64,000 nucleotides of DNA from Elusimicrobiota bacterium (GTDB taxonomy: Bacteria > Elusimicrobiota > Elusimicrobia > UBA1565): assembly GCA_016212885.1 (NCBI GenBank), contig JACRDO010000016.1:8255-72254 (forward strand). The letters run 5' to 3'. Position 1 is the first letter of the stretch. Every line of letters starts with the position of its first letter. Of this stretch, positions 14,089 through 64,000 are shown in pieces. Below the pieces are notes generated by a model. That model had not been told where the DNA came from and ran no database searches. It saw nothing but the letters and a program-made list of their open reading frames with translations. The position numbers and the translations under genes are program-made.

Positions 14089-14099
14089 AGGGGGATGTT

Positions 14100-16651: not shown

Positions 16652-16725
16652 ATCGAGGATTCTACATCAACGGGGGGTGCGTGTCCAGCCCCCCACCCTG
16701 GATGGAGATTTACGTGCTACGAACC

Positions 16726-30362: not shown

Positions 30363-33300
30363 CTAATGTATAACCCCGATCTTCCTGATCGCGGTCTTGG
30401 AGCCGGCCTTGATGCGCGCGATGTAGCCGCCCTTCGACACCAGGCGGCCCATCCCGTTGCGGCCGTCCCACGGGACTTCGTTCTTGCCGACCCTGCCGCC
30501 AGGCGTCCCCTTAGGGCATGATATCGAGCGGACCACGTAGCCGAGCAGGTCGTAGATCGTGATGGTCACGTCGGAGTCCTCGCCGAGGACGTAGACGATC
30601 TTGGTCCCGCCGCTGCGTGAATCGAAGGGGTTGGGGTAGTTCGACACCTGGGTGATGCCCGGTTCCGGCAACGTCATCACCGAGATCGACTCAGTTTCAG
30701 CGGACCACGAGGAAGCGACGCCCGCGTAGTTGAACGCCCGCACGCGGTAGCTGAGCAACTGGCCCGACTGGCGCGGCTGCTCGGCCGGGTTGCTTGCCGG
30801 GTTGCCGACGTGGTAGGCGTTGTTGGCCACCCCGCCGGTCTTCACGGCCGTGATCGCGCCGAGGGAATGCCAGACCGGGTCGGTGCCGCTCAGCTCCTGG
30901 ATCTCGTAGAGCATCACGTTGGATTCGTCGTCGCGCGAGGCGTTCCAGGTCACGACGAAGCTCGCGCCGGAGGCCTGCCCCGGCGGCACCAGCGACCGCA
31001 CCGCGGCCGGAGAGGTGGGCGGCGTGGTGTCGATCCGGTAGATGATGAGGGGCCGGCCGGACTCCGACGGGATGTAGCCTGTCGGCGCGCTGACGGGGCC
31101 CGTAAAGGCGCGCACCGAGACGAGGGCCATGCCGTCCGAGACGAGCTCTCCGGCCAGGTGCTGCTGCGGCAGTGTGCCCAAGCACCCGCGGCCGGTGGCG
31201 CCCGGGCACCCGATCTGGCCCGGCAGGACCTGGAACTCCGTGTTGCTCACGCGCAGCGCGCCCACGATCTCCGAGCCGATGACGAGCTTGCCCTGGTTGA
31301 AGAAAATCGAGGTATCCTCGACCTTGATCGAAGCGTCGCTCGGCCCGAAGGGCTGCGCCAGGCGGGTGATCTTCGGCACCGGCAGGGCCAGGCCGGTCAG
31401 GGTCCCCGAGGTCACCGAGCCGACGTTCCTCCAGCCGAAGGTGAAGGACTCGTACTTCTCGAAGCTCTCCCCCACCGCGATCTGATAGCCCGTTATGCCC
31501 TGCGTGGAGGAGGGGATCGGCCACGAAAGCCCGAGGCTCGTGCTGTTCGAGTTCCAAGCGGACATCGCCAGGCCCTGGTCCGAGATCGGCATGGCTTTGC
31601 CGTCCTTGTCAACGATGAAGTACACCGGGTTGCCCTTGCCGTCGTCGACCACCTTGTCCGGGATGTTGTCGTTATTGATGTCCAAATCCAGCAGGCCGTC
31701 GCCGTCCACGTCCACCGAGGGCTTGTCCGAGCCGATGAGGCTGATGAACTGCCGGCGCCCGGTGTTCAGGAAGTCGAAGTTGTCCGGCGAGCCGTCATTG
31801 TTGATGTCCACGAGCGGCTCATTCACCGCGGGCTGGCCCGGCGCCGCGGCCAAGGCGGAGGCGCCCGAGGACTTCCACGGCTTGCCGTCCTTGCCGATCC
31901 ACTTCAACGAGTCGCAGACCGGGCGGCCGGTTTCCGTGGAAATCTTGACGCGGCCGGCTCCATCGCGCTTGACGATGCAGGGGTAGCCGAAGCACGGCGA
32001 GCCGGAGCCCTTGCAGGGATGGGTTCCGTCTTCGCCGACGTCCGCGATGGTGATGGTCGGCAGGATCGAGGAGAGCGGGATGATCGCCGTCGAGATGCGC
32101 ACCAGGCTCGATCGGGCCGGGAACTGCTTCTCGTTGGATGAATGGGAGGCCGCGGTCAGCTCGGAGGAGTTGGGCCCGAACATGTCCTCGAAGCGCTCGA
32201 TCGAGAAGCCGATCTGGTCCCCGATCGTGGCGCGGCCCGCCAGGTCCACCGTCGAGACGTCGCAGGCGAAGAAGACGTTGACCGGCGTCGTCGTCACCAT
32301 GAGGAAGGGGACGCTGGAGACGCTCAGGTCCACGAGGGCGGTCCCGCCGCTGAACTGCCCAGAACCGCCCGGGAAGCCGAAGTGCGTCAGGGCGCCGATC
32401 AGCTTGTCGCTGTTGGGCGTGAAGGCGCTGTCCCCGTTGTCAAGCCAGACGCTCAAAGATCGGGCGTCGCCCTGCCCGACGGCCGTGACCGGATACCTCT
32501 CCTGGACCGTGCCCAATTGGGTCAGCTTGAGCTGGGCGATGCGCACGAAGTCCGAGTTGACGCTCATCGTCACCTGCCCCAGCGCCACGTTGGTCTGGCC
32601 GCCCATCGCAGCGGAGGGCGCGAGGTTGCGCGACTCGAACCTCAGCGTCAGCGGGGTGATGTGGACCTTCGAGCCCCTGAACGGGAACTCGCCGGTCATA
32701 GTCCCCCTGGCCTGGAGCTTCGAGACGTTCAGGCGGATGCCGGGGGAAACGTCCTTGGGCGCGAGGACCCCGACCCAGGACTTGTCGATGATATCGACGG
32801 AGAGCTCGTCGTTCTTGACGGCCGTGGCGCCGACGTCGTAAGTCAGGAAGAAGACGCCGGCCGTCGGCGAGATCGTCTGCTGGACCGAGAGCTCGACGAC
32901 CAGCTGGAGGTCCTGGTCGTTGAGCTGGTTGAAGACGTCCACCTTGCGCACGCCCGCGCCGGCCGCGTGGGCGAGCGTGGGCGTGGGCCCGCCGCCCAGG
33001 ACGTCGCCGCGCGATAAGATCGCCAGGGTCGGGTAGAGCGCGCCGCCGATCTGCGTCGTGCCGTAGCCGCCGCCGAAGGTCATCAGCTCGGTGTTCCCCA
33101 CGTAGATGCGGCCCTGGCCGTTTACGGGGAATCCCAGCGTGGAAGCGACGACCAGTGTGAAGGGCGCCGTCTGGTTGGAGGAGACGGCGCCGTAGGGGGG
33201 CAGGGTGGAGCCGGAGATGACCAGGGTGTTCGCCTCCGAGACGTTGAGGTCGTTCTCGTCTAAGACGTCGTTCTGGTTGATATCCTTCCAGAGGCGCACG

Positions 33301-36300
33301 AAGCTTACGTCCGTGTTGCGCCCGAAGAGCTTGTCCTTGTCCTGGCTGCCGCCGCCGCGGGAGATGCGCAGGTTCTGCCAGGACGCGAGCCCGACGTCGG
33401 TCGCCATGTTGAACCTGAGGAACGTCACGTTCGATTCCGCCTGCCCGACCTGGCTGATGTTGTTGCCGAAGATCCAGTCGTAGACCCCGAGCGTGACCCA
33501 GGAGGGAACCTCCTGGATGAGGACCTTGGGGGTCGTCTCGAAGGGCGCGGGGTCCAGCAGAACCCGGTGCGGCACTTCGATCTCGACGTAGGAGGTGTCG
33601 TTGACCGACAGCCCCTCGAGTGTCCCGACCCCGGCGAACTGGTTGAAGCTGAAGGTGATGAAGTAGCTCTTCGGCGTCGTGCTGACGACGATGGGCTGGC
33701 GGAACTGCACGCTGACCGTGCCCGTCGAGAAGGTCTCGTTGCCGAAGGAGAGCAGATGGAGGTAGGCGCCGTGGCTGTCCGTGGCGGTGTCGGTGGAGGT
33801 GAATTGGCCGTCGTTGTCCGCGTCCTCCCACAAGCGCACGACCGTCACGTCGGTGTCCAGCGTCTCCTTGGGGACGTGGTTGAAGCGTAGCTTCGACCAG
33901 CGCACGGTGTTGCGGTCCGTCTTGGCCGTGATCTTCGCGAGCGAGACATCCGAAGCGTTCTGCATGGCCGTGTTGGGGGCGAAGCGGGAGAAGGTCAGCG
34001 AGAGCGTGTTGATCGTAGGCACGATCGGGAAGGCCGGGCTGAAGGGGCTGTTCACGAGGAAGATCTTGTGCCCCGCGCCCGGGGGCCCGAGCTGGAAGTC
34101 CGTCTCCAGAGGCTTGCAGCGCCCGACGGCCTCGTTGCGCTGGTTCACGGGCAGGTCCTTGTGCGTGAAGCGCGCGGCCTGGTCGATGTCGACCGAGATA
34201 AAGTAGGTCTGGGTGGAGGCCGGCACCAGGGTGTAGGCCGCGTTGATCTTCGAGTCCGTGATGTCGAAGATGACCACGCCGTTGACGATATTCCCCTGTG
34301 CGAGGACGCGGTCTTCCCCGTTCACGCCGGTCAAATTGTTGCGATGGAAGACGGGCGCCTCCGGCGGCTCCACGGACTTCCAGAGCTTGGCTATGGAGGT
34401 GTCGCTGTCGCGCACGTTCAAGCCCGGCGGGATCTCGAACTGCAGGCGCATGCGGTTCCACTGCACCTGGAAGCCGCCGGCCCAGCCCTGGAGCTTGACG
34501 ACCGCGTTGTTGTTGGCGCCCTGCTCCAGGCTCGGAGCCAGGACAGCTCCGGCGCCGTGCGCAGCGGCCGAGGTGTCCAGCAGGCCGCGGTGGACCCCGA
34601 TGAGCGCCGACACCCACGTTCCGGAGCCCGCGGGGTACTCCACCTGGCCCAGGGCGTCGTAGGAGACGAGCTCGTTGTCAATGGTCATGTAGGTCGTGGC
34701 CCCGCCGGGCGCAAGCCCGGTGGAGGAGGAGATCAGCCAGTAGGCGTCCGGCTGGCCGGGGTCCGGCGGGACCGCGGCCGGGGAGCTCAAGGTCGGCGCT
34801 TCGAAGGTGCCCTTGGAGGAGGAGAACATGGGCGTGGTCTTCAAGTAGAGGATCTGGGCCGAGGGGATCATCTCGCGCAGCTTGCTCGTAAACGGCAGGG
34901 GCGAGCCCCTGTCGTATTCGTTCGGGTTGGAGAAGGCGTTCGCCGCCGGATCGTCGACCTGCGGGCTGGGCCGCGGGAACGCGTCGGCCTTCAGCACCGC
35001 GCCCAGGGTGCGCGGGGCCTGCGTGCCCGGATCGTTCGTCTGGGCCTCCGGGGAGAGGTGGTAGGCGATGAAGTACCGCTGGGAAGCCTGCGCCTTCGAC
35101 AGGGTCCTGATCGTCTCGGGCGTGAAGAGGATCACTTTCGCCTGCAGGGGAGTGCCGGCGTTCCCGAACGTCCCCGTGCCGATCAGGATGTCGCCGGGCA
35201 TGGAGCCCGACGGCAGCTGGAAGACGCCGTCGCCGTTTGAGTCCGCCCAGGCGGAGACGAGGTCCACGTCCGACTGGTTCCTGCCGGCCGCGGCCGAGCT
35301 GCCGGTCGCCGTGACGACCACGAAGCGCCAGAGCGAGTCGCCGATATCGGCCTGCAACAAAAACGAGAAGACGGCGCCGGTGGACCTCTGCTGGAAATAG
35401 GGGCCGATCTGCGGGTCATCGACGGTGTTCGTCGCGATGACCAGCAGCTTGTCCGCGTATTCGGACACGTTGCCGACCAGCGAGCGCGTCTTGCCGGCCG
35501 GCGGCAGGCCGATGTTGAGGGTGTCCATCTGCTTGGGCTCCTTGATGATGAAGTAGTGCGTGTTCGGGATGATGAGCCCCAGGTTCGCCTCTTCGCTGAC
35601 CGTGGCCAGCGGTGAGACGTCGAAGGTGACGAAGAAGTTGCGCGACCCTCCCGTGATCGACTGCCCGCCGCCCAGGCCGATGATCGGGATGCGCGCGGGC
35701 CCCGAGATCGGGGTCCCGGTCGAGAAGCTCAGCTGGGTTGTGCCCTCCATGGCCCGGGTGCAGTTGCGCCAGACGTTGGCGGAGAAGTCGACGTCCGGGC
35801 AGTTCATGATCTCCTTCTGGTCCTCGTCGGTCTGGCCGTCGTTTAAGACGAGGCGCTGGGGGGTCGGCGGGAAGGGGTCGTCGCTCGGGAAGAAGTCCGA
35901 GAGCCTTGTCACGTAGACGTCGATCGGCGAGGGGGTCGTCGAGCTGATCTCGACCTTCAGGGTGCCGACCGGGAACTTGTGGACGATGCCGGAGAGCGGC
36001 GAGACGATCTGGTCGGTTGTGTTGCCGGCCAGGTCGGGGATCGCGTCCAGCAGTCCGTTGCTGTTCTGGTCCGGCCAGACCTTCTGGTCCGACCAGACCT
36101 TGATGTCGTCGACGTCCATGGCTTTGTTGGTCAGCTTGATGAACCCGCCCAGGGCCCTGGAATGGATCCACCTATCGAGCTTCAAGCCCGACCAGACCGC
36201 TGAGCCGTTGGATTTTATGGTCAGCTTCGAGACCGGGGCGTTCTTGTCGTTCTGCGTGACGGAGGTGCGCACCGAGGGCGCTCTTCCCGCGCCTTCCGCG

Positions 36301-60300: not shown

Positions 60301-63300
60301 TAATTGTCCGAGGCCGAGCCGGACGACGTGGCCAGGGAGTTGACGGGCTGAAGGAGGGTGGGCCAGACGATGCCGGACTCCGGCTTGGTGAAATCCCAGG
60401 TGAACGGTTTCGGTGTGAGGCTGCTGTTGCCGGCCGCGTCCTTGGCGATCAGCTGGGCGGTGTACTGCCGGTTGGTCTCGAAGGCGGAGCCGTCAACGAA
60501 CTTCGCGTGGGTGTAGCTGTACGTGTTGAGGCCCGCGGGGGAGGCCGGAAGGCAGGTGATGTCCTGGAAGCTCACGCAGTCCACCGCGGAGACCGTGAAG
60601 GTCGAGGCGTTGTCCCAGAACTGCTCGGTGGCGCCCTGCATCCTCTTGACCCGGAAATAGGCCGTCTTTGGGGCGCTATAGGGCGGGTCCTGCGCGTCGT
60701 CGGTGACGGTCCCCGAGAGGGCGGGAAGATAGTTCTTGTAGTTCACATCGGGCATGAAGATGCCGGCCACAGGAGCGGCATTGTCGATCCAGAACTCCCT
60801 TGGGCCCATCGGTGGGTTCTCCGTGGGACTGCCCTGGGCCTGGGACCACATCCTGTATTTGTGCAGGCTGGCCCATTTGCCCGCGGGGATCGTGAACACC
60901 CAGTCCGGAGGCGCGGAGTAGTCCGCGGGCACGAAGCTGTCGAAGCCGGCGCCCGGCACCGGGTAGGTGGACTTCCACAATTGCACGGAGGGGTCGTAGC
61001 AGAGGTAGCTGTCGTTGGGCTGGCCTTGGCCGATGTCGTAGAGCTTGACCCACACACCGGTGGCATAGGGGACGTTCGCGGTCCCGCGCAGGGCCGCGGC
61101 CGCGGGTCTGTAGAACGGGGTCCCGGCGATCGGCTGGCTGATCGTAGACGCCGGGCCCGGGGAGGTGAAGGAGAAGCTGACCCGGTTCGTGTTCGCCAGC
61201 GCGCTCCCCGGCCGGGCTTCCATGTTCGCGGCCTTGTCCGCGGCCGCGGCCAGGATCTCGTAAATGTTGCCGTTTTTCCAGTCCGGGGTGGAGACCCCTG
61301 TCGTCAGCCAGTTCACGGGGATGGAGGTGTCCGTGGTCGCCTCGACCCAGTAGGCCGAGCCCGCGCTGGGCGCATCAGGAGGCTGGGCCCCGTCGGTCCC
61401 GGAGAATAGCTTGGTGGTCTTGTCCCACCAGCCTGGGCCGTTGGTGGTCCTGCGGTAGGCCACGAGCACGGTTGAGACCCCCGAGGGACCGTTGTCCACG
61501 GACGTGCCCCGGACCGCGGGGAGGGTTGAAACCGGGAACCCGTGGGGCGGGACCGTGATAATGGAGGTCGGGGCCTGGAAATCCGCGGCAAAGGTGACCG
61601 TGGAATACTTCAAGTCCATGTTCGATGCCTTGTCCACGGCCCGGGCGTTGGCCGTATAATTGACCGCGGTGGTCCATGCGGCTGTGGACAGGAACCACGT
61701 CCATGGCCCGGGCGCGCTTCCTGAAAGAACGGCCGCGCTCCAGGTCTCACTGGTCGCATCCACAACCCAGTCCCCGGTGGGCCCTTGGCTCATTTTCAGG
61801 TACTTGTTGTCTGAGTCCCGCTTGATCCGTACCTCGACCTGCCCCACCTCGCCCTTGGCCTTGTCCGTGGCGTTGCCGGACACGTTGGCGCTCTGCGCGA
61901 TGAAGCCGCCGCCCAGCGGGAAAGTGATGGTGGCGGTGGGCCTGGTGATGTCATAGACAAAGGTTGTCCCGGCGTTGCCCGCGCCGCCGCCCTCCCGATT
62001 TATTGCCTGGTCCTCCGCGCGCGAGATGATCTTGTAGTTGCGGCCGTCCACATAGGTCGGGTTGGTCAAAGTGTAGGTCCAAGGGGCGATGCCGGTGACC
62101 GGCATCCAGAAGGAGGTCTCCTGCCAGGCGACCGTGTTCCAATACGTGGACGCGCAGGTGAGGTCCTGGACCATGATCTTGACGTCGCTCACCCCGGAGC
62201 CGGCCGGCGTGTCCCAGGCTGTCCCGGTGAGGGTTAGCAATCCGGGGGTGGCGTTATAGAAGCCGGGGGAGGCCGGCGGCGAGTTGACCATGGACTGGGG
62301 CGCCGAGACGTCGTACTTCCAGGTGCTGGAGGTGAACACCGTTTGGACGTTGCCCGCCACGTCTACGGCCCGTGCGATCACGTCGTAGGTGAAATCCGCG
62401 TTGAAGGGGACCAGCGCGGAGCTCCACGTCCAGGTTCCGCTCGTGATGCTCGGCAAGGCCAGTGTGAAGTTGGCGTTGAGCCAGATCGCGGTCGGATCCG
62501 CGGGTGTCTTGTAGGTCCAGCTCGAGGGCAGGGCCGGGTTGAAGTCGTTTGAGTCGTTTACGCGGCGCAGGCGGACCTGGATCGTGGCAGCGCCGGAGTT
62601 GAGCTTCAAATTGTCCGAGGCCGTGCCTGTCATCGTGGCCAGGCCGTTGTAGGCCATGCCGTTCTGTGGGATGCTGGTCCAAGCGGTCGGCTTCGCCGTG
62701 TCGAAATAGATGCCGACCTGGGCGGCCGCCCCCTGGTTGTTGCCGGAGGCCGTGTTGTCCTGGGCCCTGGCCTTGATGGTGTAGGCCCTGCCGGTCCCCC
62801 AGATGCTGCTTGCGAAGGAATAACTCCACGTGGCGGAGGTCCCGCTCAGCGAGAAGTTCGAGTCCGCAAACCACTGGTCTAAGCCCGCGGCCCAGCCGTC
62901 GCCCGGGTTGGTCGGGGTCCAGCCCCAATTGTCGTCGCGGTTTATGGCAACCTGCCCGTTTGCGGGCGTGCTGTAGTAGTCCATCGCGGTCCCGCTGATG
63001 GCCGGCAGGGAGTTATAGGTGTTGCCGTCAATCGGCACGGTGATCACCGTCAAGGGACCCAAGGTGTCATAGCGGAAGGTGTGGCTGTTGTTTAAGGCCG
63101 GGTCCGAGTAGTTCAGGCGAGCCGGCGCGTCCTCCGGATTGCCGGCCTTGTCTATGCCCTTGGCGCGGACGTTGTAGACCTTGCCGTTGGCCCAGGGAGG
63201 CACGTTGGAGAATGTCCAGGTGTAAGTGGAGGGCATGGCCGCGGGGTTGAAGTACTCCGTGGTCACCCAGGTGCCCGAGGTGATCCACCAGCGCCAGTAG

Positions 63301-63974
63301 GTGGTGGCCGCCTGGTTGATGTCCGCGATGTTGACCCCTACGCTGTCCGCGCCGGAGAGATTGTCCGGGGCCTGGCCCGAGAGCGTGCCCAGGCTGTTGT
63401 AGCTGACCCCGTGAACAGGAACTTGGACCACGGACTGCGGGGGCGTGTTGTCGAAGATCACGAGGGTCCCGTCGTCGCTGTCCGAGCCGGGCAGGGTCTC
63501 GATGCGGGTTCCCGTGTCGTAGGCCGCGCGGGTCCTCAGACGATAGATCTTGTTGGGCAGCCAGGCGAAGCCCACGGTATAGGTCGCGTAGTACACGTCG
63601 TACTGTCCGGCGATGTTCTCGTAATTGCTTATCGCGCCGTCGATCCAGTCCCGGAGGACGCTGCCATCGGTGACGTTCTCCACCCTGAAGCGTATCCAGG
63701 CGGGATTCACGCTGCTGCCCCAACTCATGCGCGCGTTGATCTGGGAGAGGCCGCTCAGGTAGGCGCCGTGCGCCGGCTGGGACACGTAGGAGTAGGGCCA
63801 GGCTGCCCTCTTGACGTAGATCGTCCTGCCCGAGCCCACGGTCTCGGTCTTTGTCCCGGTCTTGGCGCGCGTCCTCACCACGCACCAGGAGTCCGCGCTG
63901 CCGTCCTTCCAGACGACCGGGACATTGGCGTAGGTGAAGTATTCGGCGCCCTGCGCAAGGTTCCACTTGCTCAT
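30363..63974 (-). CDS. giant repetitive cell-surface protein (at least 11,203 aa) with a FlgD-Ig/T9SS-type C-terminal domain; probably 5'-truncated by the window
   Basis: A single open frame of 33.6 kb with protein-like T/S/G/A/N/Y/W-rich beta-sandwich composition, whereas all overlapping frames are R/G/P/A junk. The frame stays open from 63975 to 64000 (...GAWVPGLD-MSKW). There is no signal peptide at the listed Met. Confidence 0.9.
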   Translation of the reverse strand: MSKWNLAQGAEYFTYANVPVVWKDGSADSWCVVRTRAKTGTKTETVGSGRTIYVKRAAWPYSYVSQPAHGAYLSGLSQINARMSWGSSVNPAWIRFRVENVTDGSVLRDWIDGAISNYENIAGQYDVYYATYTVGFAWLPNKIYRLRTRAAYDTGTRIETLPGSDSDDGTLVIFDNTPPQSVVQVPVHGVSYNSLGTLSGQAPDNLSGADSVGVNIADINQAATTYWRWWITSGTWVTTEYFNPAAMPSTYTWTFSNVPPWANGKVYNVRAKGIDKAGNPEDAPARLNYSDPALNNSHTFRYDTLGPLTVITVPIDGNTYNSLPAISGTAMDYYSTPANGQVAINRDDNWGWTPTNPGDGWAAGLDQWFADSNFSLSGTSATWSYSFASSIWGTGRAYTIKARAQDNTASGNNQGAAAQVGIYFDTAKPTAWTSIPQNGMAYNGLATMTGTASDNLKLNSGAATIQVRLRRVNDSNDFNPALPSSWTYKTPADPTAIWLNANFTLALPSITSGTWTWSSALVPFNADFTYDVIARAVDVAGNVQTVFTSSTWKYDVSAPQSMVNSPPASPGFYNATPGLLTLTGTAWDTPAGSGVSDVKIMVQDLTCASTYWNTVAWQETSFWMPVTGIAPWTYTLTNPTYVDGRNYKIISRAEDQAINREGGGAGNAGTTFVYDITRPTATITFPLGGGFIAQSANVSGNATDKAKGEVGQVEVRIKRDSDNKYLKMSQGPTGDWVVDATSETWSAAVLSGSAPGPWTWFLSTAAWTTAVNYTANARAVDKASNMDLKYSTVTFAADFQAPTSIITVPPHGFPVSTLPAVRGTSVDNGPSGVSTVLVAYRRTTNGPGWWDKTTKLFSGTDGAQPPDAPSAGSAYWVEATTDTSIPVNWLTTGVSTPDWKNGNIYEILAAAADKAANMEARPGSALANTNRVSFSFTSPGPASTISQPIAGTPFYRPAAAALRGTANVPYATGVWVKLYDIGQGQPNDSYLCYDPSVQLWKSTYPVPGAGFDSFVPADYSAPPDWVFTIPAGKWASLHKYRMWSQAQGSPTENPPMGPREFWIDNAAPVAGIFMPDVNYKNYLPALSGTVTDDAQDPPYSAPKTAYFRVKRMQGATEQFWDNASTFTVSAVDCVSFQDITCLPASPAGLNTYSYTHAKFVDGSAFETNRQYTAQLIAKDAAGNSSLTPKPFTWDFTKPESGIVWPTLLQPVNSLATSSGSASDNYSVYFTSFAIKSLRNGKWYKPGAFFIESSPYWIGTSSDSSYNWWYANAQLNTDLGAFNTYYTLLSRAIDTAGNHQIDFTGAVSSRTFIFDNIPPAATITYPAHQGRYKSSQVGGSIYSFTGGVTDPNGPWNSGIRNVEIRISYWLAPNDTWYWQPTQVRFSSGTGVSNNGYFSVTDPNAWQSIAAVAWRPGVDTQYEIQARGEDASYQGDGTPVGNKGTPAALGADIADFVIDDTAPTPLLQKPAANAVNALTNISGTANGDLAGVSKVEVRIVRSADNWEWTGSAWTNSSNLYSTAALTGVNGNITWDYDDLKVVAGGASAFEADRKYKIFIRATDLAGNVRTPPGGGDIEFTYDQAPPALAITFPLSPPTMPPYSNNVESARISTMTAGTITDPGTNPTGVSKVWVAVSSGSAENMWWDNATGKFDHGPDPNIYWSTWVNVLGASWEYKPAAWSLVNGFSDAISYTVYVKAQDAAGNWVNNALTPGGSAPGQTQPFKYDLNRPTAAVSVPASGSNVNTPLASMVLSGTAKEWDTTGSGIARLYVAVKHTDGPTSGGNYQPLGWYNWATGEFQPTLDPGSNQTSNGWAMVSSAPITDLTLNVNWSTPVPAGIFKSSNTYRVTTLAMDQASNKQLTPTDPAIGAAFRYDVEAPLLRSTWPAVNANLNLAALASIAGTASDETSGASGLQSVQILLQSQQIGTKGYWNGGASNGLSDWDTDPATKYNQWRTVAPNPTLKTWALSFAPLSFLDSTKFTLWARATDYAQNTSAWPSPSQCDALKNADDSPALQFTYDDTPPMSGVRFPPVYTSSPSLSAITGTSVDAYEGVRSPSLLNNVKYRLKRSDNWYWQVLGGWSSVDPGLQNVDGGPVNPWTKTLLLGALEDGYRYEVHSRGQDNAQNIETPYHTFAFVVDLTTPVAKTTGPADGGFANASLTHISGTAEDRFCLLSGLCVPGSREFQAGLDVSSVSVAVQDMSGFCPILPTIMGCWWTGTAWSDTYTPIWSTAAFAGDSSGTWTFAFNASALQSPRTYKVAARARDRGGNQQQGVSVTSTTFTYDISPPTSFATLPMGATGQVNTITGTAQDATPGQLDKVKLAIQEIDCGSNPCHKNKYWNGVDWQDAKVYLASGTVEGGCAIGAICQWSFDPGQVAWDNRSTYTVVALAMDKAGNTKVEPGGPDITFYLETPAADVTLNQPPAPNWLHYNHNTAGQVNVITGIGHNLKKYGGVRLQIKRLAEPVRYWYDPSQAWTAEQGTYTAVNVTTTTDPMQWSYNLSGAVYSMTNSSYTLTVTGYNGANLPSVSVDRTYVIDEVNPTVQILSPAAPPCPVGFADGCITALPTISGTAVDPGNVNPPSIALVRARLKCEGGIADGKYWDGTGFNPLTPVDMVTSSTIAATTEWSTGTLAAPALIDGVNYAVYTWVQDKAGNRETSESAMTSFKFVYDKNPPTAFLLYPSSGEVYLDMNTISGTSFDPPGSNAPNRKSGVASVKLMIKRYDNNKCYSGTAFNILCNDPAAILPVTGIDPWGFTDPTLTGQLLSNTTYVITVIAQDAAGNAQANFLSPASSRTIKVDFNPPAAGYVKPAGGGKSYKPSDLDTLNGTAVDPQAQLYPGGDAIYKAEVVFWYLQGQTSYYWVNGSTINGTWFSSTTFEGAQWFQAAVSGGWTFNIPDYTKFISDKQYYGKVRARDKARTATGPIVGNQSIPSNTLNGIEYVDFIVDGTPPSSRVLRPAAGAFVKTLAVISGTSNADLSLAATYYLRITSGVAGAEPNWAFWNGTAWTNTPKDLPVKITGSTGTVLWEYPTDIAGYNTPPTMAAIAENTKFGISIQSIDKAGNVEPGATTQVTMDSIGPSVAITMPTEKFYASAQQTLPVISGTSYDFPAGTGRVELQLVQKASGSGGDGKTWYATGWKVDVSSYHVADGGNNWSFVGPPGSSMTWVNNKAYTLYVRAYDTAGNWVEGLTRDVVYDVVKPTAVISVPEAGKFYPAGQPAGLSGTAFDWVPATTVTEAMAGVKKVEIAIMQGGNYYQGTQAGGFTGSINYRPTSMTGDALGMGVMNWTYPPAGDQIPNWQHGLAYTVRARTVDLSGNMATGAEETLSNFTYDSQAPVTAVASPYHLQYITAFSSVTGSFVEPVPPTESGVDIVEIAIQEQGGTFWNGVGFSAYNAATSWRPVVVTAPKFTFTDAALTNLIKALTVTKGYKVYLYSKDNAGNQNRSKAAPPASGPSEMQVDFFPPVSVATFPVNNSYITGGVTPIRGTADDQSLINPMGAGASAVYLKAIRIDSAGTLRYWDGGGWNLPGDPGFNLMTTLAGGVGNIGSWQSQAFSLAENAFADGYRYQIASRAEDLLGTIEANVTTITFTVDRSTPLTAFSSPGPTGASLYISTSNFAFSSGTFIDPAVGGLIISSVNKVAVQLQDQSAGCHTIPSGNNYWEQGSGWKSTPQESTATLHASSWTFASLPQDWIRAADACSPDGRLYQLRIRAVDNTNNQGTFPGTLTSAVTLTFDGTRPQSFVVYPSTADNDTTSTLATITGTAFDPKINASSSGVRAVGLTIWSDPTNDAKNNCNNGNYWNQAGGSWSVGAPVLNATAFDPVTGIWNFTSGSIESTMRPNCFYIFISSALDNAGNWERVAAPPPADRPSYRRLRYQPPPALTGISVPVLSAVYNDLKSFQGLADEKTVRVEMQLQRRDMGTCWAGKTTLGVQGWVNCAVDVATATRVLYPFALSWGYPPSDEILPSWHDLNNTSFTLTVKGYNYANIAEDPPHTSDFAVDQTSPTTSLAYPADGAFVNVFPVLNGSVVDPLYAGAQLNPPGGGVAAGMKDPNGIKVLIKRLDNNLYWDQIQQVWGGTFFNSALYHPLGSSWTFTASPSTSVWIDGKQYGVQTRGIDLALGGVEPNTSEPTLFKYFIFDVSYPTAAVLSLAAGTTYSSVLTTGTVFDSAPGIIDSVWIQIKDHGTPANPNNPPTYWDAVNKVWKPSLYASTAAIAGSNWSLADLPAFANYHYYTIMSSAVDKAGNTEPQANLVVTKSSFSFFADTQAPTIAFSNPPNSDYFSNSLGNVSGLVNDPYAPVCAGVTRVSNPSDSDNVLVQIKYVAGGTTYYFDTAGSWNAGLSDANSWFSPFGYVAQGPSSGTWTYSNMSLSNSWLPAKTYTISARARDHAYPGRNLSSSYTLTNIVYDNTAPNAQTAGPGNYLPYKMVSVASGTVSDNYDGVNSVSVLISYVQAGATYYWNHVSSTFTTTYSAAPAVVAAPGSLGTAWSYSHAGLTSGAGDWASGGITNREYRVYAFATDRSSNTQTLTASTVTFILDNTPPSGDSSRPPAGANVSYGNNFYGPQNPLMDILGNSSDQPVYPPLYPLAKASKVEVRIKRYSGPCIGGGQIYWNGAAWSSNETSWAVVNGTDSWNYLGAGAALPSFDDNCMFIANTRASDRVGNLSAMTTQYLTWDISTPSAAIVTPGSLYINSYVPISGTASDPFSVIAGQGKGSGIRRVQAAIRDNAPAVMSWWDGVGFNISDLDHNGGLGWIDASTTTEVFPAGASFSLPTSTVGYLTGKSYRVEARAVDWANNMTTPVSSITFTFDNTLPTVSFERPPVQANLTLSSLPQILGAAGDNVALDRVELRIRRNDTGNYWAPGTFPPNFSIIEALSNTAWCPAAGTLNWSSGTWPANFFSNAVNYSIHARSIDKAGNAALYSASTFTFTTELPFSYVAQPSTYAVSAFTTITGTASDVVSTVDTARFYIGIQRIWDGKWYDDNTKVFSIQQANPSWIAVAIQATPPYLWNYVGLAQAKLENGLEYHIVTKSSNTAGKWEEMYDAHGNDWGNYWGTGRDRTIVFDQTPPNSGVVYPSTNAVLSAIASINGTAADNNPGAGISGPSSVTVSMREIWPIAGNYWNGGSGFTLSYERFFPVDLLTPTGGNAYNWSITGNLPAFTSGKMYHLRVFAVDDSRPDQNVQVLVASRTFAYETSLASIAVVSPAKNLSRNLVTAIVGTAADIFGVSAASIAIQEQNGAYWTGSTFTSPTAVWFSSMPPTGTAPNFNWSYSSATFNFQDGRKYIIRCRVLAKSSLVKEGDPIEFTFDTTPPNSDIEAPTRLSNAVNASPSGLYLNKLVVVAGTADDPTTPLGSGAMGGQISIRDTYPPGDKYWDGSDWNPYNADASWLSTTWEGPCGTKHFCRSGGFPPTSGANSFQTGHVYEIKARGLDNAGNVQTSLAQGATFTFDLQAPNVLIDARVLAVKAGENPGPIDDVQVSSTPPKYLNALTKIAGTAGDNNNISRVEFRFYWEVGQWWHNPTQPNPGFSSLNTDPEDSWQTSSDSSPLSSLLWASTGIPSFATKPGRYKVNVRAFDSAGNVLSYSTASFTFDDVPPISKSSSVADGRIINSLTAIYGTAYDGNGVTAVSPKIERASDHLCWNWQSNGIFAGDCSFFAQIVPAGSAGTDESWVQNADLPPPNNTVNGLQTGVTYYVTTRARDSALNFEAALTTVSFVFDSIPPVISVLTPGPGSAFASETGKGTVLNQLAGSISDSPSGVAPDVDESTWGVRYSMQDQITGLWFNGSGFTLGSEGQALRASESGWNNGGNWFKTIGSPSTVFTDGHTYKLKVLSRDNVGNAENQATKPMTSFLIDNTFPQASAWTPLGISNTETDAVTLLGSAQDVTPPGGGGLAQSSIAAPTDVLISIRQTIAFSNTAPGPSDYYWNGVAFSSSIAQPNDNGPVCTAPGVPTDCRWVLASTYDTASHGWIYTGLGSGATPWPRGKAYFVRTRARDRAGNLRPPADPDVPTPGYYFKVAAPAASFLVQTAQGPYTAGTAQNVTVTALDDQGQTANNFTGTLVFSSPDSGAPETPGNGLPVNYTFQPGDNGVLSNYTGLALRKAGARSLRVEQSGKPGVNGLVSGIIVDPDVPYSLLLRMPGQTLAPGTGSGRTGSVSISTAGVGFFASVYVTDKNFNVTPASAPPNIALTHNDPYAGPIASTSWNSGMMQVSVAMKSKRGNWTVPGVTLETQLSVSGAGAPGAWNSASLAVGANTASPMKNLLLRLPGEQLVPGSAMGKTAFPDEQQAASTFTATVYACDGFFNPYEPWQAHMSPQVWLGVNTPFASVDSTKTLTLGSTDYSLYLRAASSSTRVTAYTDTANYVESSTRAVIQPHSQTGQAWILQLLLPGQTPLPGSMAGSSGSLSALTAGVTYYATVNLTDQQYNVVTATTVFYDNIPYPIVRLDVSDPNMSARGFIPLGDQYKQGLVAGSSLFKFIAVTRTCPTCAQISLDIGAADSGDNLTAYSSAPAQHIQVNPGPVTHVQFLLCGQDPVGEKPSEGSLSGKTGIPGPFIAGNNYAVTIRATDNYWNRTSDLRKVALITNDPFAVVPATQPLSNGQLVASGFSPISATNALEVSAVDADLFTLTTQTISGLTVLPKPFNKLMVLVPDEKYIPGNPPYDQSASGGRIHILPSTAVPVGTPFTFTVRGTDPYWNTVDVSSNVTMTASDPQAAIPTRTLTLVNGATTFTYTPVRVGTHTVSATLPGVYSSTSNVFNAMGARLSLLIQGETPKPGDIAALGRQGSPDGNLGLVGVQNFTAGAPFNLTVRLVTWNFFPLPSGSPLTLTFYSDDPNAVLPASTTLNDSGESAFTGVKLASATAAGARIWVVAGNPDITPSTSSALYVDPNVPARLIALASGMSLMKGSQTGFAGAASAVTAGSDYPVDVLVTDAYYNPVTSISPVVRVALSDPNVPAIPDQTVTNGSTTLHISLRTNTVVDPVGGPWTLKVSKADDTLSSFTVAGITVNPGPPYRFQVLVPTETARPGSLNLLGRSTYSALGQLAASTFTITVNLVDQFYNRVKPGFDSTFRLFSDDPNHQLASFGDFTTNNGQWVTTHTYLVTESTVTGWRITASTATGDNVLAGDSTRFLVYPSTPAKLVVVLSGQVRRDGVGVSSAPASQIAGEDIHVTVYATDKGFNLTDYINKTGIRLTSDDSFAQSSWTLTMMNGVAVGTVTLRTAGTRSFSVLDQSGMDPLLAGIVSSTFTLTPSNPMRLRVRVPNQYAVPGSTVIPPQPYGGRGGTVIGQPAGSTMTITVEITDAFWNLTLGASQQIRIVPTDPHAIILPSTLTVTGVGLVDVVFKKSMPNQLRAEMLYDPQPWGDRLASDTSTVVNVTAGLPKNLVVVLPGEDFDPGSETGKSGVPNTANKAGDPVYVRVGIVDRFYNVVANRAADIRIKTPAGFPFIVSCPTAPINTAYGKTDPTALPAALLAAATWHQLLAEDYGGSGLQDSPYSSTFTVSAGEPYGLQLVMPGQISIGGLGTYPDGGKVGAVSTQTAGAPFNATVNLVDQYNNIVNPAPKVGADYLPSFNLWTSDAYDVEPSSVPMTASGSRQVQLALVSKTTSALVAVYPRAQDVDKVCTVNLLPNQVCRSAAESQANPAARSERFKVFASSAARLQVLLPGEKGAPGKCGGGASPYCRSLEPGDTPGKTGAPNAVTMTMPQSAFQVTVNLIDDFFNLATEISSTSVNWDTNPPSLMPKVALSLPSDTRAAQPPPAALQLGSWSFPIIPVAAVSTYSVVASTTPDSALDISSAASALFPVNPGPAHHLHFSGVPSSATAGQMIHFSIIAHDIFSNLLSTGPNLCLSTLTLSAEYFQTPQTPSFSPTLAPFYVSDGGVKTFINERGLTLKKAGSRWIRAALDDNPIVTSEVIGYSQRPSIFVAPSDAGSVTVLPGPTSQIVSVRAGSQLSPGMSEFTGQLSDVYNNPLISSAPVYIQIVGVYGSSGSLVYNEGAGWVASGATYTYTDMKGRIGNNGEPDNVNIKWGYIVSSKAGDYARIWIGTMTAPADLGPFLGEQRNLSGALLTTGGYPKHLVFVSTADAALAGADGLSGGEFTVGRLDDFGNPTDWLSTEIMLTLPSDEVAVRSRAGFAPGMPNTMSGDYGFAQPNQPYKYIDRVTIQETLTQIRFRYRDSMSSYAGASPEQNLGNGGRPGRWTLQMVPLAMDVSSVTFKMAIRPRDPKTLGFGNPVNRMVAGQIYDVDGESRRSFQVQVQDIFNNPVVATAPITVALSTAARRPSTVDDSFSFSASSIISAGALPAFEAPISSVTIPALKFETTFYYLDTTASSSYPPEESSRPVVGVSDPAGVLLSSAQFVNVLPDLVSRIAVPPLAHPTLFAGATSEMIVFEVEDKFGNPSPVKLGGGDGGGSKPYIEFTIRSNSIGDTQYSSPDPGSFIASTGTARLEIGLAATSFYLIDTRVTPSTNTPWELRVNTVQNRFWTVAAGTYTVNPGPPLTAQFTSPKRYLIAGTTVQLSTATQLPIDPFIQIDLYDQFGNISASSWAYHTLQVRSLNSTTTRAGRTPSKAIMGETSDWQRIGPGQSAFPVNIDINQTGARFYVWDTVVGTITLSVLVTRGQDGFIMPIVMQDNFITPNRADYITFHHPFTQYNPLHTGAPGVLARTVGGRTLGVALRDTFGNIAAGHPINKQYFAGNVLFGTSGSQVTLLDLTAGATLQNAHVFQGAADPTPGVFTGLQVTDFLVEDLVVSATAQAQTQIWGKTKDFGRAFNCDVPGPDPECPPIKADQRSDDNVFTAGVVFFPTDLAPEKNEDGTVKEAKSRLGQMRPVLRQGDGMTPASPDPVQMLRLTLSVAPSTANFLSGQLSGLQVRKTGRLAAEHVEEIALYADADDDGNFRYTGGAAGDVRIATGVYDNGYWYFGDKTRGQVPLEAADATRTIVTVAPRNFFLALRLKPTGYAEVELPSDLGLEISGPFFVMLTTASQVGVAGNNFAIKTATSPVEREAARINILGESISAWWAPSIDTTTRLPLSTYEYVNQGAGSVGMMKLKLWTEAYNGTIDRIRLTHNGTGLDQDVKHIRLFVDSGADGDPSRGNGIFEVSIDTEITPTAWRRPEESLCVNDPPGAKPADKTAFSQRAAVLSLCILDPTKSDAPAYQDAVARNTAQRTVSPSTITYFVVFDFASDATRDKTHGMQISGPADVIPLAGNGDVLPFMPYVSANVSVHATPDVAYVEAVDAEGAGRAPSVRTSVTQNDKNAPVSKLTIKSNGSAVWSGLKLDRWIHSRALGGFIKLTNKAMDVDDIKVWSDQKVWPDQNSNGLLDAIPDLAGNTTDQIVSPLSGIVHKFPVGTLKVEISSTTPSPIDVYVTRLSDFFPSDDPFPPTPQRLVLNDGQTDEDQKEIMNCPDVDFSANVWRNCTRAMEGTTQLSFSTGTPISGPARIPIIGLGGGQSITGGSRNFFVTFDVSPLATVSEEANLGLIIPNTHYFIIKEPKQMDTLNIGLPPAGKTRSLVGNVSEYADKLLVIATNTVDDPQIGPYFQQRSTGAVFSFLLQADIGDSLWRFVVVTATGSSAAAGRNQSDVDLVSAWADSNGDGVFQLPSGSMPGDILIGTGTFGNAGTPLQAKVILFTPETIRTLSKAQASQRYFIAYHLSPEAQTNDPGTQAPRTLGAVLKADAFPRPSPQVDDPAANAFSNPNEYDRGSPLPFTSKLREMIPSAQILYLKTTPMFSSSKGTFEAPTLSSPAAVPPDPGQPDAYWLISSSTGLAPGGATTYMTIDNELVSYDALGQVEYPAGSGTWVSALIGVHRGLLDTSAAAHGAGAVLAPSLEQGANNNAVVKLQGWAGGFQVQWNRMRLQFEIPPGLNVRDSDTSIAKLWKSVEPPEAPVFHRNNLTGVNGEDRVLAQGNIVNGVVIFDITDSKINAAYTLVPASTQTYFISVDIDQAARFTHKDLPVNQRNEAVGRCKPLETDFQLGPPGAGHKIFLVNSPFSPAFPIVPTINTLSLTFSRFAPNTAMQNASDVSLAKITAKTDRNTVRWSKLRFNHVPKETLDTDVTVVRLWEDADNDGQFTSTDTATDSHGAYLHLLSFGNETFSTGTVSVQFRQPIVVSTTPKSYFITFSFNQFAGVGTLEGLSVNDTSYVEIEVPHRVLLDPAPFETTPKVLIQEVPSWVTLGVYDWIFGNNISQVGQAESNVTFLRFNMATDVGLASWQNLRISRGGGSQDKDKLFGRNTDVSFVRLWKDINQNDVLDENDLNVSEANTLVISGSTLPPYGAVSSNQTAPFTLVVASTLGFPVNGQGRIYVGNTELMTFGGGYGTTQIGGALYPTLAILSRGDVLGGGPTPTLAHAAGAGVRKVDVFNQLNDQDLQLVVELSVQQTISPTAGVFFLTYDVGATAVKNDELSVDIIDKSWVGVLAPKDVSPGIRLNVSKLQARGTMTGEFPFRGSKVHITPLTLRFESRNLAPSAAMGGQTNVALGQVTMSVNSDFVRIAQLKLTQLGTVQERYPVTAVGQGDARSLSVWLDNGDSAFTPNSDKLIGALTHFGFPGGSGQFSGGTALVDLSVSSVPFLMVTTTPVNVFFACDVSTVDLAGRATIGDQIGFSIERFEDMFGPNSSELTAASHSSNEKQFPARSSLVRISTAIIPLSSILPTITIADVGEDGTHPCKGSGSPCFGYPCIVKRDGAGRVKISTETGRPVCDSLKWIGKDGKPWKSSGASALAAAPGQPAVNEPLVDINNDGSPDNFDFLNTGRRQFISLIGSDKPSVDVDGDGLLDLDINNDNIPDKVVDDGKGNPVYFIVDKDGKAMPISDQGLAMSAWNSNSTSLGLSWPIPSSTQGITGYQIAVGESFEKYESFTFGWRNVGSVTSGTLTGLALPVPKITRLAQPFGPSDASIKVEDTSIFFNQGKLVIGSEIVGALRVSNTEFQVLPGQIGCPGATGRGCLGTLPQQHLAGELVSDGMALVSVRAFTGPVSAPTGYIPSESGRPLIIYRIDTTPPTSPAAVRSLVPPGQASGASFVVTWNASRDDESNVMLYEIQELSGTDPVWHSLGAITAVKTGGVANNAYHVGNPASNPAEQPRQSGQLLSYRVRAFNYAGVASSWSAETESISVMTLPEPGITQVSNYPNPFDSRSGGTKIVYVLGEDSDVTITIYDLLGYVVRSISCPKGTPGGRVGKNEVPWDGRNGMGRLVSKGGYIARIKAGSKTAIRKIGVIH
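30366..30656 (-). other. giant protein: C-terminal sorting domain (FlgD_ig / Por_Secre_tail-like)
   Basis: The last 97 aa or so read ITQVSNYPNPFDSRSGGTKIVYVLGEDSDVTITIYDLLGYVVRSI...NEVPWDGRNGMGRLVSKGGYIARIKAG...IGVIH. The YPNPF...IYDL.G..V...V.WDG.N..G..V..G.Y pattern is the classic T9SS type-A CTD / FlgD Ig-like fold. Confidence 0.75.
30657..31019 (-). other. giant protein: fibronectin type III domain
   Basis: PTSPAAV...FVVTWNASRDDESNVMLYEIQ...LSYRVRAFNYAGVASSWS. Confidence 0.7.
31020..31535 (-). other. giant protein: FN3-like domain split by an insert of about 80 aa
   Basis: LGLSWPIPSSTQGITGYQIAV...(insert IKVEDTSIFFNQGKLVIGSEIVGALRV...GRGCLGTLPQQHLAGELV, about 31131-31370)...VSVRAFTGPVSAPTGY. 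Confidence 0.55.
31536..31811 (-). other. giant protein: cluster of DxDxDG-type (thrombospondin-3/dockerin-like) calcium-binding loops
   Basis: VDINNDGSPDNFDF...VDVDGDGLLDLDINNDNIPDKVVDDGKGNPVYFIVDKDGK. Confidence 0.6.
31812..32045 (-). other. giant protein: small four-Cys module
   Basis: GEDGTHPCKGSGSPCFGYPCIVKRDGAGRVKISTETGRPVCDSLKW. Four Cys fall within 33 residues of an otherwise Cys-poor protein. Confidence 0.5.
32050..37500 (-). repeat. giant protein: repeat family 4, about eight modules of about 235 aa with a (L/V)(W/Y/F)xDx(D/N)x(D/N)G loop
   Basis: Motifs seen: LYADADDDGNF, LFVDSGADGD, VWSDQ..NSNGLLD, AWADSNGDGVF, LWEDADNDGQF, LWKDINQNDVLD and VWLDNGDSAF. The spacing estimated from DNA positions 37360 and 32440 is about 234 aa. 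Boundaries are approximate. Confidence 0.55.
37500..40600 (-). repeat. giant protein: repeat family 3, about seven invasin/Big_1-like modules ending Dx(F/Y)(G/S/N)N
   Basis: AHDIFSNLL, SDVYNNPL, LDDFGNPT, VQDIFNNPV, VEDKFGNPS, LYDQFGNIS, LRDTFGNIA. Boundaries are approximate. Confidence 0.5.
40600..45960 (-). repeat. giant protein: repeat family 2, about 13 units of about 135 aa with an LLLPG(E/Q)...PG...GKxG...AGxxFxVTVxxxDxx(F/Y/W)N signature
   Basis: Examples: LLLRLPGEQLVPGSAMGKTAF, LVVVLPGEDFDPGSETGKSGVP...VRVGIVDRFYNVV, LQVLLPGEKGAPG...FQVTVNLIDDFFNLA. The upper boundary is fixed at the codons for GYYFKV (45948-45965). Confidence 0.6.
45960..63974 (-). repeat. giant protein: repeat family 1, about 45 tandem Ig-like modules of about 133 aa
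   Basis: Recurring frame: (F/Y)x(Y/F)DxxxPxS...(I/L)SGTAxD...SG(V/I)xxVxVxI...YW(N)...W...W..A...WxY...G..Yx(V/I)xxRAxDxAGN. I counted about 45 module ends by eye in aa 1 to about 6005. Confidence 0.65.
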
Positions 63975-64000
63975 GTCCAGGCCGGGGACCCAGGCGCCGT

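Follow-up and report, generated by a model that had tools for sequence, protein, structure and literature searches.

SprB of Flavobacterium johnsoniae is an adhesin that works together with SprF and the GldLM-powered type IX secretion and gliding machinery, and in the type IX secretion (T9SS) machinery of Porphyromonas gingivalis PorV is the shuttle and PorQ the anchor for cargo with a type-A C-terminal domain. SiiE, an adhesin of 53 domains, measures about 175-200 nm. By function these systems stand nearest to the locus described below. Here we analyse a stretch of 64,000 nucleotides (the window) from the genome of an Elusimicrobiota bacterium (assembly GCA_016212885.1, contig JACRDO010000016.1, positions 8,255 to 72,254), whose minus strand carries a giant open reading frame (ORF) and, directly downstream of it, genes for a PorV/PorQ-family barrel and for flagellar-type motor proteins. 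According to our analysis the frame is a real, conserved gene for a giant protein, and the explanation of the whole locus that we prefer, with somewhat more conviction than doubt, is a giant outer-membrane-anchored adhesin made of immunoglobulin (Ig)-like repeats, possibly motor-driven.

Like the predicted giant, SprB is a very large, repetitive, beta-rich surface protein with a C-terminal sorting domain, and its system resembles the window locus in having an outer-membrane barrel gene immediately downstream and a proton-driven inner-membrane motor of the 5:2 type. However, SprB carries a type-B C-terminal domain and is paired with PorP/SprF, whereas the giant ends in a type-A-like domain and is followed by a PorV/PorQ-like barrel with tetratricopeptide repeats (TPRs); the motor is GldL/GldM in the first case and flagellar-type MotAB with a FliG-like protein and FlbD in the second, and the SprA and GldK/N components of the SprB system were not seen in the window. 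SprB comes from Bacteroidota and the giant from Elusimicrobiota, and no sequence homology of the two is claimed. The P. gingivalis T9SS cargo shares with the giant a C-terminus of about 90 residues that reaches the TIGR04183 cut-off (marginally in the giant), and its PorV and PorQ share with the window barrel a match at the NF033709 cut-off (marginal in the window), but they have no TPR domain, and the remaining T9SS components were not seen in the window.

SiiE, encoded in Salmonella SPI-4, is a giant tandem bacterial Ig adhesin accompanied by the MotAB-like proton channel SiiAB (bioRxiv 10.1101/641415; PMC12204202). The combination of a tandem Ig adhesin with a MotA/MotB-like proton-driven complex, which in SiiE's case controls its secretion or retention, is the same as in the window; the differences are that SiiE belongs to the substrates of type I secretion, with SiiCDF, genes that are absent here, that SiiAB belongs to an ExbBD/TolQR-like branch and has no FliG partner, and that the giant is 2-2.5 times longer. 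With the flagellar torque unit (PDB 8UCS, 6YSF, 1LKV) the window shares the middle and C-terminal domains of FliG, MotA, FlbD and a MotB with plug, channel Asp and peptidoglycan-binding domain, whereas the FliF-binding N-domain of flagellar FliG is missing from the FliG-like protein, which is membrane-anchored and has C-terminal TPRs. The giant proteins described from Omnitrophota and related phyla also come from a related, mostly uncultured lineage, are largely un-annotatable and were proposed to serve attachment; they have many transmembrane regions and SecA DEAD domains and lie near type II secretion genes (bioRxiv 10.1101/2023.11.21.568195). By contrast, the 11,211 in-window residues of our giant have neither a transmembrane helix nor a SecA domain (Pfam), and the protein ends in a T9SS-like domain and adjoins PorV-like and MotAB/FliG genes.

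Giant genes were already noted as common in Elusimicrobia, with reference to the same 2023 preprint (PMC12057145), and the giant ORF in itself is, modestly, one more giant Ig-repeat surface protein in this phylum. That preprint does not contain the words MotA, FliG, T9SS or PorV, and in the papers that could be searched we found no description of C-terminal-domain proteins whose genes are linked to those of a PorV-like barrel, a FliG-like protein and a stator of flagellar type. The coupling of giant and motor cluster thus appears to be undescribed.

The giant gene and its product

A six-frame scan of the window finds the minus-strand frame free of stops from 30366 to 63998 (11,211 codons), closed by a stop codon at 30363-30365, and the second-longest open frame has 1,211 codons. 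With a per-codon stop probability of 0.0239, taken from the base composition of the strand, 11,211 stop-free codons have a p of about 10^-117.6. The GC content at codon positions 1/2/3 is 0.55/0.52/0.92, a pattern that marks coding sequence in this genome of 66% GC. Comparison of the 33.6 kb with itself by blastn gave zero matches at E<1e-5, every 20-mer is unique, and Tandem Repeats Finder reported three tiny arrays and nothing else; this lack of DNA self-similarity makes an assembly expansion very unlikely. Besides, the C-terminal 3,300 residues are open and collinear in independent assemblies at 40-60% identity. An earlier note, made from the sequence alone, had described an uninterrupted minus-strand ORF of at least 33.6 kb, with modules divergent at the DNA level, free of long near-identical stretches and not due to assembly expansion, and all of this is borne out. 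A pseudogene reading of the giant ORF was considered and rejected. In one related locus (L001 1-9478, GCA_006515825.1) the orthologous giant was called as two genes, of 2,093 aa (cut by the contig end) and 1,065 aa, which overlap by 4 nt; the gene may really be split, or the break may come from a frameshift or an error of sequencing.

The N-terminus lies outside the window. The first ATG of the frame, at 63974, is followed by MSKWNLAQGAEYFTYANVPVVWKDG, a hydrophilic start without the hydrophobic core of a signal peptide, and eight open codons (GAWVPGLD) separate it from the window edge, both as the earlier note had reported. Its further claim, that the gene continues upstream, agrees with the orthologues: gene calls on long contigs gave complete ones of 14,004 aa (UBA9639), 12,492 aa (GCA_016194745.1) and 13,779 aa (GCA_041694815.1), each wholly inside its contig, and a further one truncated to 10,864 aa by a contig end. 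The three complete genes occupy about 29,742-71,756 of DMEZ01000070.1, 217,030-254,508 of JACQBA010000016.1 and 58,886-100,225 of JBGFSC010000033.1. Judging by the complete orthologues, the in-window gene is short of about 1,300-2,800 N-terminal residues and the complete protein would comprise about 12,500-14,000; the source contig, of 74,734 bp, extends at most 10.7 kb beyond the window. Two neighbouring proteins, looked up by exact sequence, had no record, the N-terminal 500 residues gave no match in genome and metagenome contig collections, and the N-terminal 1,000 (60999-63998) gave none at E<=1e-10 in a protein index of 5.8 billion sequences. This index probably omits the very longest proteins, as the homologue search missed the orthologues of 10,864 and 14,004 aa and the largest protein returned by any search (from a different library) had 7,176 aa. 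Either the N-terminal array evolves very fast, or its sole relatives are too long for the index.

Homologues that carry a taxon name all come from Elusimicrobia/Elusimicrobiota metagenome-assembled genomes, and orthologues are deposited in public assemblies as hypothetical or 'Ig-like domain repeat' proteins. Relatives of 5,129 aa and 5,250 aa (Elusimicrobiales) align with residues 6,633-11,211 of the giant at 35-37% identity, one of 2,531 aa with residues 8,747-11,211 at 45%, and an Endomicrobiales relative of 3,815 aa with residues 6,870-10,264 and the C-terminus. Since the smaller relatives align only from about residue 6,633 on, the C-terminal ~4,600 residues are the conserved core of a family whose members have 2.5-14 thousand residues, and the N-terminal array is a lineage-specific expansion.

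The in-window protein has a mass of 1.19 MDa and a pI of 5.05. No convincing transmembrane helix was found in its 11,211 residues (the maximal 19-residue Kyte-Doolittle mean is 1.86, in two beta-like segments), and Pfam detected no catalytic domain, which speaks against a membrane or cytoplasmic enzyme. It is very probably, judging from its sequence features, a giant secreted or surface Ig-repeat protein, an adhesin or a fibril.

The first ~7,850 residues in the window are about 60 tandem Ig-like domains. Self-BLAST and an iterated hidden Markov model (HMM) delimit 45 back-to-back modules of about 125 aa at residues 65-6006 (family 1), which share pairwise identities of 18-35% in the alignment and follow the consensus xDxxxP..P..G..N.L..ISGTAxD...V.V.I....YW...W...W......Y.V.ARAxDxAGN...F..D. 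According to the HMM, a near-full module already occupies residues 65-171, and residues 1-64, a stretch that the HMM does not match, may be the tail of the preceding one; the earlier note, which took the first ~170 residues for the back half of a family-1 module, was roughly right with its register slightly off.

With 43 copies as its own alignment, AlphaFold2 models the family-1 module as an all-beta domain of 9 strands (predicted local distance difference test, pLDDT, 90.8; predicted template modelling score, pTM, 0.85). The best Foldseek matches of this model are Ig-like/E-set domains (TM 0.5-0.58, E 2.5e-4), with sulfite oxidase, PPAD IgLF, Siglec-like and CopC at the top; the modelled fold is thus Ig-like with no close solved relative.

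Scanned singly, none of the 43 modules reaches a Pfam Big_* cut-off; the sub-threshold matches are to Big_13 (8 of 43), Big_3_2 (5), Big_7 (4) and Big_5 (2), with best E values of 0.0007-0.025. Summed over a 3,667-aa piece (52998-63998), Big_13 reaches 31.8 bits (cut-off 27) and Big_3_2 25.3 bits (cut-off 23.3), with no single stretch significant for either. The NCBIfam OmpL47-type domain sums to 42.3 bits (cut-off 40) over the 4,667-aa piece 36000-50000, again without a single significant stretch; this piece holds only the last family-1 modules, family 2 and part of the non-repetitive region, and the piece 50001-63998, with most of the family-1 array, gives only 36.3 bits. The second type of module (family 2) has the motif LLLPGE..PGS..GKTG...AG..F.VTV..VD..WN. 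and gives weak Filamin and Invasin_D3 matches. Its HMM drifted to family-1 modules after three iterations, which we take as a sign of remote relatedness of the two families and not as a domain count.

The remaining part of the protein is a non-repetitive, beta-rich region, collinear with the orthologues at 52% identity over 3,386 aa. Its ~3,300 residues have no sequence match in the PDB even at E<=1, and Pfam matches at E<=5 are noise apart from fn3, FlgD_ig and Por_Secre_tail. An AlphaFold2 model of the last 1,000 residues, from an alignment of five sequences, is all-beta and of low confidence (pLDDT 48), and gives the C-terminal domain about 7 strands.

This last domain, 91 basic residues ending ...GGYIARIK...IRKIGVIH, is near-invariant among the orthologues, and its residues 11121-11207 pass the TIGR04183 model (T9SS type-A) marginally, with 25.3 bits against a cut-off of 23. 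By kind, this terminal domain is a T9SS type-A / FlgD-Ig beta-sandwich of basic character. Each locus has it exactly once, without exception at the very end of the protein. Searched for exhaustively, the last 120 residues returned 41,164 related clusters: the close ones (47-67% identity) have it in single copy at the extreme C-terminus of proteins from short fragments up to 7,176 aa, and all four of those with a taxon name are Elusimicrobiota, while the distant ones are multi-copy, FlgD-Ig-like proteins. Clear signal peptides stand at the start of three relatives that share this C-terminal domain and whose N-terminus is intact (P0247, P0223, P0255).

The barrel and motor cluster downstream

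Seven genes of the same strand follow the giant directly after a gap of 278 nt (Table 1), and the perfect promoter in this gap means that they probably form a transcription unit of their own. The PorV-like, FliG, FlbD, MotA and MotB genes among them had escaped the earlier note. The barrel protein (PorV-TPR) scores 93.3 bits with NF033709 (cut-off 90) and stays below the equivalog models for PorV, PorQ and PorV2; one orthologue (L088) gives 108.6 bits and a distant variant (L087) 88.7. Its homologues number more than 1,000, those with a taxon name all being Elusimicrobia/Elusimicrobiota. The FliG-like protein begins with a signal-like N-terminus and about 200 residues, probably periplasmic to judge from this layout, followed by a transmembrane helix (residues 221-253), FliG_M, FliG_C and TPRs. 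FliG_N is absent from it, and the match to TIGR00207 covers model positions 112-329 only, with 101 bits against a cut-off of 226.7. A FliF-like ring-building motif in the periplasmic part was considered and rejected, there being no Pfam or PDB support. MotA and MotB also stay below the equivalog cut-offs, with 200-230 bits for the MotP/MotA/PomA models (340-394) and 131-142 bits for the MotB models (283-301). The closest solved structures of MotA in the PDB search, which is not a phylogeny, are flagellar MotA and PomA, with E 6e-50 to Clostridium MotA. The putative lipoprotein has no family assignment; its gene stands directly after motB here and keeps this place in almost every related locus. 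Further flagellar genes were found neither among the called genes of the window nor in such gene tables of related loci as were examined.

Scanning species-representative genomes with the PorV-TPR alignment gave 79 loci, 71 labelled as Elusimicrobia/Elusimicrobiota or its orders, 6 as 'bacterium', 1 as Phycisphaerae and 1 as Candidatus Endomicrobium trichonymphae. FliG-like, FlbD, MotA and MotB follow in the same order in 45 of the 47 loci with at least 8.5 kb downstream, and a homologue of the giant's C-terminus precedes the barrel in only 12 of the 60 that have 3 kb or more upstream. The motor cluster thus spans the phylum, with the giant gene as a patchily distributed neighbour. In orthologous loci (L064, L062, L088) the order giant, PorV-TPR, FliG-like is kept while PorV identity falls from 80% to 52%; coiled-coil protein, FlbD, MotA and MotB continue where the contig suffices, the contigs of L001 and L088 ending after FliG.

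Large C-terminal-domain proteins were also picked by domain search, independently of synteny, and their surroundings then inspected. All three with enough flank (P0186, P0247, P0255) lie close upstream of PorV-TPR and FliG-like genes, and two of them carry unrelated passengers. Thus PorV-TPR and FliG-TPR come after the 5,250-aa Elusimicrobiales protein, and a 5,989-aa FG-GAP/Laminin_G protein is followed by a small protein that consists of the C-terminal domain only, a PorV-like/TPR protein (88.7 bits), a histidine-kinase-FliG fusion, a protein without an assigned family, MotA and MotB, the motor proteins being 22-31% identical to those of the window. A 4,387-aa NHL/fn3 protein stands two genes upstream of a PorV-TPR gene that is accompanied by a kinase-FliG fusion. 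This recurrence with unrelated passengers is our main argument for a functional link of the C-terminal domain and the cluster. The 3,815-aa Endomicrobiales member of the giant's own family adjoins MotB and MotA (L086 11679-21500, GCA_016930715.1).

As a side observation, MotB and MotA of the last locus are divergently transcribed, MotA sharing 69% identity with that of the window, and alongside lies a type IV pilus set that is complete (PilB-, PilT- and PilC-like proteins, pilins, PilM). In the fusions (L087 30079-32538 and L089 19524-22001) FliG_M and FliG_C are joined to a histidine kinase (HisKA and HATPase_c); several response-regulator genes lie upstream of the L087 one, and the L089 variant gives a 'faint' YscJ_FliF_C match.

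The state of the motor genes can be read from their alignments. The channel Asp of MotB (YADLMTE) is invariant across the loci. MotA reads KAK[KR][ED]GFLALQ, with Gln at the position aligned to the canonical E98 and the basic residue (K/R) of the R90/E98 pair kept, and the FliG-like protein reads NMSxGAxSLLKES against the canonical NMSxRAAxxLxDD, that is R281 to G, D288 to E and D289 to S; the residue numbers are those which we take to be the Escherichia coli ones, after alignment by eye. These paired substitutions, by which the flagellar E98/R281 pair becomes Q/G, occur in nearly all of the ~70 related loci examined (L005-L083), with one exception (probably L080, unconfirmed), whose MotA, at 32% identity to the one in the window, retains the canonical Glu. 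That this paired change recurs through the phylum points to an interface that is re-tuned rather than decaying. Flagellar machinery was reported from no Elusimicrobiota genome and all isolates are non-motile (PMC11257099), and MotAB homologues are known to split into a flagellar and a generic non-flagellar clade, in a phylogeny whose main text does not mention Elusimicrobia (PMC12505986). From the conserved gene order and channel Asp, and from the published absence of flagellar machinery, the motor is taken to be under selection and non-flagellar.

Those genes could alternatively be decaying relics of a lost flagellum, irrelevant to the giant; the published absence of flagellar machinery from the phylum, the missed FliG, MotA and MotB equivalog cut-offs and the altered interface charges would fit it. 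We consider it very improbable, as 45 of 47 species loci have the genes undamaged and in synteny, MotA identity between species is 69-87%, the MotB Asp is kept, the MotA and FliG substitutions are uniform across the phylum and not random, and FliG has acquired TPRs together with a membrane anchor, or else (L087 and L089) a histidine kinase, which is neofunctionalisation and not decay.

A proposed motor-coupled adhesin and its alternatives

We propose that the giant would be exported by Sec via an N-terminal signal peptide encoded outside the window, and that its C-terminal domain would be recognised and held at the outer membrane by the neighbouring PorV/PorQ-family barrel. This docking we favour by a narrow margin, by analogy with PorV and PorQ, which hold C-terminal-domain cargo likewise in type IX secretion. 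The Ig-like array may then project some hundreds of nanometres from the cell: by rough comparison with SiiE, the ~60 in-window domains would span about 200 nm and the full protein plausibly 0.3-0.5 micrometres. More speculatively, the TPRs of the barrel together with the FliG-like, coiled-coil, FlbD, MotA-MotB and lipoprotein module might couple proton flow to secretion, tensioning or movement of the giant. That the MotAB/FliG/FlbD motor acts on the giant in this way, much as GldLM drives SprB or SiiAB works on SiiE, is suggested by the gene neighbourhood only and is, in our opinion, doubtful.

It is equally tentative that Elusimicrobiota, and at least one other lineage, possess an undescribed envelope-spanning machine derived from flagellar torque parts. 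Its parts could perhaps be a MotAB stator with FlbD, a FliG-like rotor element anchored in the inner membrane and a PorV/PorQ-like barrel with a periplasmic TPR arm; its clients might, with the same reserve, be giant surface proteins with a T9SS-like C-terminal domain, the proton gradient serving to secrete, tension or move these adhesins.

If the motor coupling is true, it would offer a testable candidate for the means by which Elusimicrobiota, ultra-small and non-motile, become attached to a surface, a host or prey, a new example of an inner-membrane ion motor acting at the outer membrane, and one piece of evidence on how the flagellar rotor-stator interface was reused, or arose, in evolution. 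The machine would moreover count as the second time that a motor with a C-terminal-domain adhesin was invented, independently of the gliding apparatus of the Bacteroidota T9SS, and would put a flagellar-clade stator and FliG to a non-flagellar purpose. Flagellar-like MotA, FliG-like and FlbD proteins are in any case conserved across a phylum that was reported to be flagellum-free, they are encoded beside a PorV-like barrel or fused to it, and they are repeatedly preceded by very large proteins that share a C-terminal domain; the paired loss of MotA E98 and FliG R281 is a specific, checkable prediction of a re-tuned interface.

Several points weigh against a motor-coupled, outer-membrane-anchored adhesin. 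The C-terminal domain passes only one of three models, by about 2 bits, and fails Pfam FlgD_ig PF13860 (24.1 against 27) and Por_Secre_tail PF18962 (14 against 27), so that the SprB-like, T9SS-type surface protein implied by the earlier note finds support in TIGR04183 and none in the other two; of the other domains it had named, an fn3-like one is present and Big_* is reached by no single module. SprA/Sov, PorK/L/M/N and PorU are not among the genes of the window, nor is PorT, and no known outer-membrane translocon for a protein of 1.2-1.5 MDa is encoded in it. With the N-terminus outside the window, Sec export of the giant is a prediction, as are its expression and surface location. The motor cluster has a perfect promoter of its own. 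The canonical E98/R281 charge pair is lost, by which torque generation in the flagellar sense is not assured. In 48 of the 60 loci with at least 3 kb upstream the cluster stands without a preceding giant homologue, and its function therefore cannot depend on adjacency to a giant gene.

The alternative that survives best is that the giant, though a surface or secreted adhesin, functions independently of the genes downstream, the adjacency being an accident of gene order; we regard it as unlikely, a little more so than the motor coupling itself. Its terminal domain might then, with the same low probability, be just the last Ig-like domain or a generic sorting tag, and its export could, no more probably, use a type II/type IV-pilus-like system, as proposed for the Omnitrophota giants, or type I. 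The consensus promoter of the cluster, the predominance of loci without a giant, the other genes that stand between giant and PorV-TPR in L058 and L078, the type IV pilus cluster beside the Endomicrobiales relative, and the extreme commonness of FlgD-Ig-like domains, which also occur as internal repeats, all fit such an independent adhesin. However, P0186, P0247 and P0255 all stand close upstream of PorV-TPR and FliG-like genes, two of these with unrelated passengers and with motor proteins only 22-31% identical, a fourth C-terminal-domain protein adjoins MotB and MotA, and PorV and PorQ are known binders of such domains in the T9SS. Type I secretion genes (ABC transporter, membrane-fusion, TolC-like) and an RTX-type C-terminus were not found in the window, and a type I-secreted RTX adhesin was rejected on these grounds and for the T9SS/FlgD-Ig-type beta-sandwich at the C-terminus.

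An artefactual frame, whether from chimeric assembly, from the collapse or expansion of a repeat, or from a non-coding stretch kept open by high GC, has a negligible probability and is rejected, for although the window at 66% GC is rich in spurious open frames of 300-1,200 codons and the orthologue in L001 is split by a frame break, the stop-free run, the third-position GC, the never-repeated 20-mers, the collinear orthologues of 12-14 thousand residues in independent assemblies and the confident folding of a single module with the other copies as alignment all speak against it.

Coordinates and neighbouring genes

Table 1. Features of the 64,000-nt window discussed in the text (aa, residues of the in-window giant protein or of the named product).
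Feature	Position	Strand	Basis or remark
Giant ORF	30363..63998	-	11,211 codons + stop; runs off window edge; N-terminus outside
Family-1 array	45981..63806	-	45 divergent Ig-like modules; self-BLAST, iterated HMM, alignment
Family-2 region, aa ~6134-7852	40443..45599	-	~14 Ig-like modules of second type
Non-repetitive beta-rich conserved region, aa 7853-11120	30639..40442	-	no self-similarity; collinear with orthologues
Single extra family-1 copy, aa 7933-8046	39861-40202	-	iterated HMM
Asp-rich DxDxDG-type stretch, putatively Ca-binding	31626-31808	-	inside non-repetitive region
fn3-like domain	31389-31565	-	inside non-repetitive region
C-terminal sorting-type domain, aa 11121-11211, pI 9.9	30366..30638	-	TIGR04183; orthologue C-termini
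Sigma-70-type promoter match	30247..30275	-	TTGACA-17-TATAAT with upstream TG, 12/12; in 278-nt gap
PorV/PorQ-family outer-membrane barrel (aa 44-296) + C-terminal TPR	28498..30084	-	NF033709, TPR and UPF0164 matches
FliG-like protein	26138..28123	-	FliG_C 87.6 bits, FliG_M 42.6 bits; PDB FliG 1LKV E 3e-32
Cytoplasmic coiled-coil protein, 594 aa	24328..26112	-	E/R/A/L-rich; no family match; position conserved across loci
FlbD (SwrD-type small flagellar-motor protein), 74 aa	24107..24331	-	PF06289 87.6 bits, cut-off 24.7
MotA, flagellar-stator type	23266..24078	-	PF01618; PDB 6YSF, 8UCS MotA E 6e-50
MotB, plug + OmpA-like peptidoglycan-binding domains	22519..23262	-	channel Asp kept (YADLMTE)
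Conserved small putative lipoprotein (MRAALLLSAGLFCGC...)	21836..22522	-	weak CarboxypepD_reg-like match
IS66-family transposase	14978-16651	-	low-GC stretch
DruA-like ORF	14100-15110	-	low-GC stretch
B12-binding radical SAM gene	10923-12356	+	low-GC stretch
PMT_2 glycosyltransferase	9670-10926	+	low-GC stretch

Beyond the cluster lie the housekeeping genes mnmA, ddl and that of a class A penicillin-binding protein. Between mnmA and ddl a 160-aa protein without a family (20269-20751, minus strand) has a signal-peptide-like start with a Cys (LAASGC), and an ORF of similar size without a family stands between the same two genes in the loci whose gene tables were read. The part of the window from about 9,600 to 16,700 has a GC content of 0.57-0.62, against 0.65-0.70 elsewhere, and may be an inserted island. 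Its DruA-like ORF shares about 130 nt with the transposase ORF, and one of the two starts may therefore be miscalled.

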